From UHGV virus genome UHGV-0137787: DNA of 11,125 nucleotides; one strand, given 5' to 3'. The notes beneath the pieces are model-generated. The model did no database searches and was not told the origin of the DNA. It worked only from the letters and a program-made list of their open reading frames with translations. Below are positions 5,018-7,576 of the stretch, in pieces; the first letter of the stretch is position 1, and every line of letters starts with the position of its first letter. This DNA is from a virus. The translations under genes and the position numbers were made by a program.

Positions 5018-5045
5018 ATTACTCTAATAAATTTATTAGAGCAAT
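5018..5045. promoter_or_regulatory. Palindromic pair of overlapping P1 C1-repressor operator-like 17-mers
   Basis: Minus-strand site at 5029-5045 reads ATTGCTCTAATAAATTT, 17/17 against the C1 operator consensus as I recall it; plus-strand site at 5018-5034 reads ATTACTCTAATAAATTT (16/17). Together they form the perfect palindrome CTCTAATAAATTTATTAGAG, which overlaps the dmt stop codon. Confidence 0.6.
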
Positions 5046-7576
5046 ACACCAATAACATCACAAGCAACACCTCGTGTGTCCCCTTTGCAAGACACAGAAC
5101 GTCTGGCAAAAAGAGATTCCACTCTGAAGCCGCTGTCCTGATAAAGCTCTCTGATGTTTGGCGCGCCACTGTTAGTAATGAGAACCTTTGCACCTCTGCG
5201 ATGAGCATCCGTCAACAGAGACACCAGGCGTTTTTGCTCTTCAAACTTAAAGTCATGACCGGAATAGTTCGTGAACCCCTCAGTATTGGGAAGCGGTTCA
5301 TACGGCGGATCGCAAAAAATGACATCTCCTTCTCCGGCAGCTTCAATCACTCCAGCAAAATCACCACATACAAACTCAGATCGCCCTTCCGCACCAAGAA
5401 AGGCTTCCATCTCCTGTAGTGGAAAATACGGAGTTTTATACTTCCCATAACCGACATTGAACTCACCGGCCTGGTTGTAACGCGTCAATCCGTTAAAACA
5501 ATGTCGGTTCAGGAACAAAAACGCCGCTGCGCGATGTAAATCATCATAGACTTGTTTGTTAAACGCATTCCGTACTGCCAGGTATCCTTCCTGTGTGTTG
5601 TAGTCCTGGAAAAACCGATGTGCCAGTGTGATAAGTGAATGCGCCTCGCGTTGTAGAGTCTTGTAAAAGTTAATCAGGTCAGCATTCACATCATTTAGCA
5701 GATTTTCCTGGTATCCGGCATTCATGAAGACAGCTCCGCCACCAACGAAAGGTTCAATCAGGCGCTTCCCTTCTGGCAAATAGCGAAAGATTTGTTCCAG
5801 AACACCAAATTTTCCACCAGCCCATTTGAATATGGATCGTTCGAATTCTACCGCTGGTTTAACTTTTCGCTCTTTTGTTTCGCTCCCTTCTTTTTGCCGA
5901 CATGCAGCCTTAGTAATCCGATCGCCAATCCAGCGCATTACTGGTATCGCCATACTATTGCCGATCGCTTTGTAACGCGGTCCGTCAGCAGCGAGCATCG
6001 CGGCCTCTTCTTCGCTTAAATCAGGATAGTGATTGCGAAGGTATGTCAGTTCATCAGAAGTGACTTTTTTACGCTTTCCTGTAGGGATCAGCGTATGCCC
6101 GTCAGGAAAACCTTGTAGGCGTTCACATTCGATAGGTGTAAGCCTGCGCACGTTAATCACATGAGGTGCAAATAATGCATAGGCGACGCCATGTTTATCT
6201 GTCGTCGTAAGACATGGGGATAAATTCAACATTGGTTCAGTTGCATTGCCGCCATTTTCAGGCGACCGCCCAATCCAGTTACCAGGTATCCCATAAGCTA
6301 TAGCTGGTGGGCATCCCGTATTTTGATTACTATTAACAGAGTTACCAGCTCGTAAAGTCGGGGCACATTCAATAGCAACATCTTGTCCGTAATCTTTGCT
6401 GGAAAAAGCTACTACTGCGTTTTCTTGTCCGTGGTTACGACCAATAGTATGTGCCAATTCACAATTAACATCAGGATCTTGTGTTCCATGAACAGCCATA
6501 ACTGCCAGATGTTCGTGGCTTTCTTGTGGTCTGGCGCGAAGAGTGCCAGCTCCTTTACGCCAAACACCAGCGCCTGTACTACTGAAAACAGCTAAATCGG
6601 TAGCATCTTTAAAATCTCTGGCCTTGACAGTGGAAGCTGTCTCATCATCAGCATACTCACCAAATGCAACCATTCGATAAACACCAACAAGCCCACTTCC
6701 TCTCTGCGCAAAAATCTCCTGGTTACTTGCGCCGATCCCGCCAGTATTGTGTGACTGGTTAAGTGTCGGGTGAGGATTTACTGAGCTATCCCAATGGCTC
6801 CCGCTTTTAATGCCATTTCCAGCATTCCCGGCAGCTTTCGCCCCCTCGCTTCGGCTCGGCGCAATATCCCGGCGCACGCCTTCGAACTCAAAAAGTACCG
6901 TTGCGGGATCGATGTCTGTTCTAGCACTTGCGACAACAAACACGCGTCGGCGTCGTTGTGCCACTCCGAAGTATTGGGCATCAAGGATTCTCCAGGCCAC
7001 TTTTCGCTGCGGTCCATAAATACAACCACACTGCGGCCACTTTGGAGCATGGCTACCGGTTTTGGCATCCCACCGCCAGAACGCGTTACTTTTTCGTGAT
7101 TCAGGTCGATCACCAGGTTCGAATGGCGCATTTTCTCCAGCCAATCCGGCAAGGAAACATCCGAAGGCGTTATCTGCCGATGACAAGACTCCTGGGACAT
7201 TTTCCCAGACGATAACGGCTGGTTTGAGAAATGACTCAGCCCGTTTGTCGTCAATTGCATTTGCAAGCTCCACATACTTTAAAGTTAGCGCGCCACGCTC
7301 ATCATCAAGCCCACCACGTAATCCTGCGATACTGAATGCCTGACAAGGTGTTCCCCCGACGAGCACATCAGGGGATTCGATTTCCCCAGCCAGGACTTTT
7401 TTGGCAAGTTTTGTCATGTCGCCAAGGTTGGCGACATGGGGCCAGCGGTGCGCAAGAACGGCTGATGGAAAAGGCTCGATTTCAGCAAACCACGCCGGAC
7501 GCATACCCAACGGTTCCCAGGCAATACTCGCGGCTTCAATTCCACTGCAAACAGATCCATAGCACAGCTCTCTCAC
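5036..7576 (-). CDS. dmt: Bifunctional DNA methyltransferase: N-terminal C5-cytosine MTase with a large target-recognition region, fused to a C-terminal Dam-like N6-adenine MTase (P1 Dmt-like), 846 aa
   Basis: C5-MTase motifs: [11 protein letters not shown] (PCQ), VWENV (ENV), [38 protein letters not shown]. Dam-like motifs: [34 protein letters not shown] (DPPY). GTG start overlaps the hrdC stop (GTGA) and follows GGAGAGG. Confidence 0.9.

Follow-up and report, generated by a model that had tools for sequence, protein, structure and literature searches.

A dmt allele of a P1-like phage-plasmid with a modular, putatively multispecific cytosine methyltransferase half

In this study, which was based on an 11,125-nucleotide stretch of the virus genome UHGV-0137787 (hereafter the window), we analysed a single open reading frame (ORF) of 846 codons that occupies positions 5036-7576 of the minus strand and starts with GTG. 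Judged by its sequence, this ORF represents dmt from a P1-like (Punavirus) phage-plasmid; the reading frame, the Pfam domains and the DNA identity to P1-like dmt genes all identify its product as an 846-aa bifunctional DNA methyltransferase (MTase), in which a C5-cytosine enzyme (aa 1 to ~556) and a Dam-class enzyme (aa ~581-846) are separated by a charged linker of about 25 residues. The gene itself is ordinary for P1-like elements, and the interest lies in its cytosine half, which carries a modular array of six blocks that resemble target-recognition domains (TRDs). Both enzymes were recognised by Pfam, as PF00145 (DNA_methylase, E=1.5e-35, in three stretches) and PF02086 (MethyltransfD12, E=2.4e-56, aa 585-820), with E-values that rule out chance. 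Together with the motifs, all of which were found, this bears out the initial annotation, in which a C5 MTase and a Dam-like MTase had been read in one 846-aa polypeptide. The linker, as delimited by the Pfam domain limits, is rich in Lys and Glu (aa 556-584, 5825-5911; here and below, features lie on the minus strand unless stated otherwise), and in the AlphaFold2 (AF2) model a helix runs on into it and is followed by a low-confidence coil.

At the DNA level, the gene was 94-96% identical to the dmt genes of P1, P7, SJ46 and RCS47 over 73-80% of the query (megablast), the uncovered part being the TRD core. The same query matched 564 plasmids as well as 533 of the 5,426 complete E. coli genomes, where the matches were nearly all plasmid-borne. 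Over 1037-6151 and 6850-11111, the window and P1 are collinear with 95-96% identity, and this part takes in the ban helicase, the tci genes, three tRNA genes, upfB and lysis-related genes. The two diverge in the central 700 bp (6151-6850), which code for aa ~242-475. The position of dmt is also that known from P1: the gene ends the uhr-hrdC-dmt operon, which has the ban/tRNA region on one side and upfB/repA on the other. In the P1 record, dmt is described as a bifunctional DNA methyltransferase that acts on N6 adenine at GATC and "perhaps" on C5 cytosine, while the Prokaryotic Genome Annotation Pipeline (PGAP) names the protein as a Dam-family enzyme only. The fusion of a C5 and a Dam enzyme beside hrdC had been described before, in P1, annotations have listed its dual nature ever since the P1 genome appeared, and dmt is present in every P1-like phage-plasmid; the window allele is a further member of this family and not a new kind of gene.

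Upstream of dmt lie hrdC (7573-8478), an RdgC-family gene (PF04381, E=4e-99) whose start was placed at the Met that matches P1 HrdC, and uhr (8471-8755), the first gene of the operon, which was identified by its P1 position and a match to PHROG 2213 (E=2.6e-63). Although uhr is listed as "function unknown" in P1, the label of PHROG 2213 is nucleoside triphosphate pyrophosphohydrolase. The end of hrdC (...CAG TGA) overlaps the GTG of dmt by 4 nt (GTGA); both the overlap and the RdgC neighbour had been noted in the initial annotation, and they can be read directly in the sequence. Such an overlap suggests translational coupling of hrdC and dmt, and a Shine-Dalgarno-like GGAGAGG is located 8 nt upstream of the dmt start. 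The GTG start (7574-7576) is supported because homologues have ATG at the same codon and because a start at the next Met, aa 25, would remove motif I of the cytosine enzyme. Three matches to the 17-bp operator consensus of the C1 repressor were found in the window against 0.04 expected. One is the operator Odmt (formerly Op68; 8827-8843; ATTGCTCTAATAAATAT, one mismatch to the consensus), which lies at its P1 position upstream of uhr-hrdC-dmt. The other two form the bivalent operator Oban a/b, which lies with the ban promoters over the stop codon of dmt (5018-5034 on the plus strand and 5029-5045 on the minus strand, with one and zero mismatches, respectively), at the position of Obanab in P1. 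The putative promoter Pdmt (8798-8827; -35 TTGTTT at 8822-8827, -10 TACCAT at 8798-8803) was transferred from the sigma-70 annotation of P1 through a 96% identical alignment. By analogy with P1, the operon would be repressed in the lysogen and expressed in lytic growth. No restriction endonuclease gene was detected by Pfam and PHROG scans of the window ORFs, so that, locally, the methyltransferase is an orphan, as had been proposed.

The cytosine half has all of the C5 motifs I, IV (with its Pro-Cys), VI (ENV), VIII, IX and X in the canonical order. Its first catalytic part (aa 1-243, 6848-7576), which is supported by motifs, the AF2 model and substitution rates, contains, as read in the sequence, motif I (aa 6-17, 7526-7561), motif IV (GGTPCQAFS, aa 74-82, 7331-7357) with the catalytic Cys78, motif VI (ENVPG, aa 125-129, 7190-7204) and motif VIII (QRRRRVF, aa 207-213, 6938-6958). 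The second part (aa 476-555, 5912-6151), which is supported by motifs and substitution rates, contains motif IX (aa 477-491, 6104-6148) and motif X (aa 537-546, 5939-5968). Motif I takes the form CSGIEAAS, a variant kept across the whole subfamily. An alignment of this half with M.HhaI spans motifs IV-VI, VIII and IX, and the catalytic core was modelled by AF2 (first run, aa 1-575, 64-sequence alignment) with a predicted local distance difference test score (pLDDT) of >90; the top Foldseek matches of the model were M.HhaI (E=4.7e-10) and M.HaeIII (E=6.6e-10). When compared with P1, SJ46 and CP059910, the ratio of non-synonymous to synonymous divergence (dN/dS) was 0.16-0.31 in the N-terminal core and 0.09-0.12 in the motif IX-X part. 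These low values indicate that the cytosine enzyme is kept by selection and is not decaying, and the purifying selection is the one, indirect, line of support for the predicted formation of 5-methylcytosine (m5C) by this half. In the same comparisons, synonymous divergence (dS) was 0.31-0.36 at the IX-X segment (5852-6151) versus 0.04-0.12 in the N-terminal part (6848-7573), and the raised value beside the array suggests older or recombining alleles.

Two observations concern motif IV in other alleles. In the P1 c1.100 reference, residue 74 of Dmt is Trp where the window has Gly (VLVWGTPCQ versus VLVGGTPCQ); this Gly, four residues before the catalytic Cys, is otherwise invariant. A loss of C5 activity in laboratory P1 under Mcr pressure was considered and dropped: in AF234173, the "incomplete" dmt represents an engineered deletion mutant, and an intein-bearing allele is present in a further "P1" record. 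Most public Dmt alleles, of 1013, 1095 and 1148 aa (P0008, P0009, P0010 and P0022 form the set of intein alleles), contain an intein (LAGLIDADG_3 and Hint_2) that is inserted as GGTP/CFTAGH...VVHN/CQAFS, so that the first residue after the intein is the catalytic Cys, the codon of which in the window is that of Cys78 (7343-7345). The intein is shortened in a 960-aa allele, and the window allele is intein-free.

The Dam half corresponds to a Dam-class (D12) N6-adenine MTase domain (5039-5824), as identified by PF02086, of which profile positions 1-245 of 253 were matched, and by an alignment to residues 4-262 of E. coli Dam (2g1p, E=8.5e-59). The motifs KWAGGK (aa 584-589, 5810-5827), FxGxG (aa 608-617, 5726-5755) and DPPY (aa 756-759, 5300-5311) were read in the sequence, and the catalytic motifs of both the C5 and the Dam enzyme are complete. 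This half is ~97% identical to the C-terminal half of P1 Dmt and had a dN/dS of 0.08-0.12 (versus P1, SJ46 and CP059910). Residues K9, N120, L122, R124, P134 and Y138 of E. coli Dam reportedly contact GATC in its complex with DNA. The equivalents of K9, N120, L122, R124 and Y138 are kept in the Dam half, while that of P134 is Gly, which is invariant in four aligned Dmt alleles including P1 Dmt. In P1, the dmt methyltransferase is needed for the methylation of GATC at pac and thus for packaging in Dam- hosts (PMC12707154). The Dam half of the window allele is therefore predicted, from its identity to P1 Dmt and this literature, to methylate GATC in support of pac cleavage.

The segment between motif VIII and motif IX is the variable part of the protein. 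The initial annotation had put roughly 250 residues between QRRRR and motif IX; the oversized region is real, and the actual figure, from QRRRR to RRLTP, is ~265 residues. When the VIII-IX segments were taken from the Dmt alleles found in a search of 5.8 billion proteins, they proved to be composed of recurring blocks, of which the window allele has six, in the order A-B-C-D-E-F. Module A (aa 253-297, 6686-6820) recurs at varied array positions in many homologues, module B (aa 298-331, 6584-6685) is common to P1 Dmt and many stand-alone MTases, module C (aa 332-362, 6491-6583) to P1 Dmt and an 862-aa allele, module D (aa 363-391, 6404-6490) is widespread among homologues, and module E (aa 392-428, 6293-6403) is common to the SJ46 and 862-aa alleles; these five are TRD-like. 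Module F (aa 429-475, 6152-6292), a probable TRD that adjoins motif IX, sets the allele apart from the 862-aa one. Each block has a [P/S/H]-[T/C]-[L/V/I] core with a short hydrophobic strand 6-14 residues further on, and the core positions in the window protein are aa 271, 316, 345, 377, 407 and 455. The ends of gapped BLAST high-scoring segment pairs, used as a boundary map, give only rough support for the module limits. Other alleles are different assemblies of the same kind of blocks: the P7-type allele (672 aa) has H only, with 96 aa between VIII and IX, the 710-aa allele has A-B, the P1 allele (754 aa) J-B-C-I, the 762- and 768-aa alleles A-H-F, the SJ46 allele (807 aa) A-H-E-G and the common long allele (862 aa) A-B-C-D-E-G.

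The blocks are not confined to Dmt. With the variable region alone as the query, 294 stand-alone C5 methylases were found, from Xenorhabdus, Photorhabdus, Salmonella, Enterobacter, Citrobacter, Aeromonas, Halomonas, Colwellia and metagenomes, and an exhaustive HMMER scan gave 875 cluster representatives at E<=1e-3 and 267 at E<=1e-10, in which the best matched stretch was often one module. The orders seen in the stand-alone relatives include A-B, B-F, A-F, D-F, A-F-B, F-A-B, F-x-D and others, along with many further module types. The VIII-IX spacing had a minimum of 95 aa and a maximum of 584 aa among 129 complete proteins. In some stand-alone relatives, P0343 (839 aa) among them, the variable region measures 400-584 aa and contains about a dozen cores of the T-[L/I/V] type, a number far above that of any described multispecific methylase.

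The window allele is rare, and comparison with its closest relatives points to exchange of modules. Its exact protein was found elsewhere only once, on a 2.9-kb metagenome contig in ENA; in that copy (P0001/L009) the gene caller placed the start at Met25, which yields 822 aa and loses the S-adenosylmethionine-binding motif I. The E-F junction occurs in one of 72,556 plasmids, namely pPSS-10_3. The 862-aa Dmt (WP_032163785, e.g. NZ_CP059910.1) is collinear with the window allele from A to E, with 91% amino-acid identity overall, but its array ends in G (63 aa) where the window allele has F (47 aa), and the DNA of the two alleles diverges only between sharp breakpoints at 6167 and 6293, exactly where F stands for G. 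The Dmt of pPSS-10_3 (NZ_AP027688.1; 1319-3883 of locus L008; 854 aa) shares the A-F order, with a dS of 0.12 in the array, whereas divergence is strong in its Dam half and its motif IX-X segment (dN 0.19-0.22; 0.22 for Dam) and the gene lies on another replicon beside other genes. The presence of the same array on a diverged Dam half indicates that the TRD array was exchanged between lineages as a cassette. Versus CP059910, dN/dS for modules A to E was 0.27, 0.04, 0.15, 0 and 0.30, respectively; module D had zero non-synonymous changes in this comparison, and module E ranged over 0.17-0.30 across comparisons.

Several results bear on whether the modules are TRDs. Module F aligns to M.HhaI at the recognition loop with T250-L251 and at the strand that runs on into motif IX, and it is the sole VIII-IX insert of P0365, a complete 331-aa MTase with all motifs; module H is the sole insert in the P7-type Dmt. 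In Smith-Waterman comparisons with the TRDs of Bacillus phage enzymes, for which the scores were calibrated by shuffling, H reached z=5.4-5.6 (0 of 500 shuffles), F reached z=4.9 against the last SPR TRD (0 of 500) and D reached z=3.2 against an SPR TRD segment (7 of 500). Module B aligned weakly with the TRD core of E. coli Dcm, TLSARYYKDGAEILI (z=2.8, 19 of 1000 shuffles), which may serve as a lead for CCWGG and is not a finding. As the initial annotation had stated, the sequence does not reveal the cytosine specificity, the weak leads being the likeness of F to the last SPR TRD and that of B to the Dcm core. No meaningful match emerged when all PDB chains were searched with the sequence of the TRD array. 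In-silico chimeras of one module and the motif IX-X segment shifted the PF00145 score by only 0-3 bits, since this profile holds almost no information in the TRD region.

Taken together, we favour the reading, with a probability of about 0.6, that the gene is a P1-like dmt which encodes two intact enzymes under C1 control and in which the C5 half is multispecific by virtue of its six tandem modules. It is likely, by analogy with the Bacillus phage enzymes, that the window allele has several m5C specificities, and the guess of a large or multispecific TRD in the initial annotation fits the array A-F. Under this reading, and following P1 biology, the dmt operon would be off in the lysogen, with expression starting upon infection or induction, and Dmt would act on replicating phage DNA. 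The Dam half would mark GATC, and cleavage at the P1 pac site needs such methylation. The C5 half would use a single catalytic core with Cys78 as the nucleophile and modules A-F between motifs VIII and IX, with each module docking in turn and reading a different short DNA target, as in SPR, phi3T, rho11s and H2. Methylation at several m5C motifs, present before the progeny DNA leaves the cell, would guard it from several type II enzymes in the next host, while recombination in the conserved flanks could lead to the gain, loss or swap of whole modules between alleles. A wider proposal, which we put forward tentatively and at slightly less than even odds, is that Dmt and its many stand-alone relatives in phages of enterobacteria and other gammaproteobacteria are multispecific enzymes built from a shared and shuffled library of autonomous TRD modules, on a larger scale than in Bacillus phages; the window allele would methylate about six m5C motifs and GATC, and the swapping of F and G would track the restriction enzymes of E. 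coli.

A number of points weigh against multispecificity, and many of them would fit an enzyme in which F alone reads DNA, A-E are pseudo-TRDs or spacer and the products are one m5C motif and GATC. In the 129 complete proteins, none of A-E occurred as the sole TRD, F and H being the only modules found in that role, and F stands at the canonical TRD position. Modules A, B, C and E (and also G and I) had no significant similarity to the proven TRDs of Bacillus phages in the Smith-Waterman comparisons. AF2 gave no confident fold for the array, with a pLDDT of <50 across aa 233-468 of the window protein and of about 30 in the TRD part of a natural A-B homologue (21-sequence alignment); with such low confidence, structure is silent on whether the modules are separate TRDs. 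Bacillus TRDs are 38-54 aa long, modules C-E are shorter (~30 aa), and inactive pseudo-TRDs occur in Bacillus phage enzymes, including rho11s and H2. Moreover, module C showed one synonymous and six non-synonymous changes versus AP027688, which, with such tiny counts, demonstrates no constraint. Nevertheless, A-E are under purifying selection, they recur across genera, in stand-alone enzymes and in varied order, and at times they adjoin motif IX themselves (A-B, A-F-B, F..D), which is hard to square with filler. We therefore regard a monospecific enzyme as unlikely, if still the most credible of the alternatives.

Two further doubts concern the benefit of m5C to the phage and the activity itself. 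In many E. coli strains, McrBC and McrA attack DNA that bears m5C, so that less benefit is to be expected, and m5C activity of any Dmt was not found in a full-text literature search, although the P1 genome paper, Trautner's work or REBASE may hold it. Both would agree with a C5 half that is catalytically silent, a DNA-binding or regulatory appendage of a protein that serves only as the Dam of P1 for pac cleavage; the literature on P1 dmt documents the Dam function only, and the PGAP name is likewise that of a Dam-family protein. This explanation is improbable in view of the six intact C5 motifs, with the Pro-Cys nucleophile and ENV among them, the dN/dS of 0.09-0.31, and the hundreds of stand-alone relatives that have the same core and lack a Dam domain. 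In many alleles, moreover, the intein lies exactly at the catalytic Cys, and inteins persist at conserved functional sites. Equally improbable is a function in the lysogen phase, in which the plasmid prophage would methylate host and plasmid constitutively as an epigenetic or anti-restriction device. An orphan MTase on a mobile element and the annotated GATC sites in P1 oriR would suit such a device, and it was in this sense that the initial annotation had interpreted the gene. However, a C1 operator overlaps the promoter of the operon and a bivalent one lies at its 3' end, as in P1, so that repression is predicted, and constitutive methylation of m5C at many sites would be self-destructive in Mcr+ hosts. 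With C1 operators at the operon, a self-modification and packaging function in the lytic phase is a more likely role of dmt than the epigenetic one.

Among the other features of the window are three tRNA genes (2699-2774, 4207-4282 and 4285-4360), which lie between dmt and ban as in P1 and have the anticodons CAT (annotated as tRNA-Ile2 in P1), TGT (Thr) and GTT (Asn), respectively; Rfam found nothing in the window beyond these three. A 167-aa ORF at 4552-5055 on the plus strand, which is convergent to dmt and runs into the Oban operators, was considered as a partner gene and rejected, as it had no Pfam or PHROG match and lies in a P1-like stretch (95%) without an annotated gene. At the counterpart of 4552-5055, the P1 annotation gives only a "dicF-like region" and the ban promoters, and Rfam did not report DicF at the gathering score. 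It is therefore unlikely that this ORF is a gene.

P1-like elements occur commonly in E. coli of clinical and animal origin, and their Dmt alleles differ almost only in the array. These elements also spread resistance genes (PMC9600943). If the modules are working TRDs, the array would be a cheap, recombination-driven means of pre-arming phage DNA against changing type II enzymes. The natural combinations would also form a panel for matching m5C specificities to TRD sequences, and the modules would provide parts for engineered multi-site cytosine methylases. Should the additional modules prove inert, the result would shrink to a catalogue of alleles.

Among the closest known systems is P1 Dmt (AAQ14041, 754 aa, the gene formerly named dam). 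The window protein shares with it the uhr-hrdC-dmt locus, the 4-nt overlap with hrdC, Odmt and Oban, the fusion of C5 and Dam enzymes, modules B and C and, beyond the TRD region, an amino-acid identity of ~97%. It differs in that aa ~242-475 are replaced and that the VIII-IX segment has 270 aa as opposed to 178 aa in P1, the shared B-C stretch being only 72.5% identical at the DNA level versus 95% in the flanks; additionally, the start codon is ATG in P1 and GTG in the window. With E. coli Dam (2g1p) and the D12 class, the Dam half shares a full-length alignment with KWAGGK, FxGxG and DPPY all present, but it is the C-terminal domain of a fusion and has Gly in place of P134. The multispecific C5 MTases of Bacillus phages are orphan, phage-borne enzymes, and related phages differ by whole TRDs (PMC12707154, PMC8936443). 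In the literature searched, tandem-TRD multispecific C5 methylases were described for Bacillus phages only, and a full-text search found nothing on the modularity of Dmt TRDs, of which an earlier description in the P1 genome paper, Trautner's work or REBASE is possible. Multispecificity is proven for the Bacillus enzymes and inferred for Dmt, of whose modules only H, F and D resembled the Bacillus TRDs above chance. In M.SPRI, M.Phi3TI, M.Rho11sI and M.H2I, a single core bears a tandem series of short TRDs between motifs VIII and IX, the place of the TRD-sized modules in Dmt, and in an anchored alignment the TRDs of SPR, rho11s, H2 and phi3T show the layout of these modules, a [S/P]-T-[L/I/V] core with a hydrophobic strand after it. 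Dmt differs in its core subfamily (motif I is CSGIEAAS in place of FSGIG), in its Gram-negative hosts and in its fusion to Dam. Dmt also has more modules, six in the window allele, with variable regions of up to 584 aa in its relatives.

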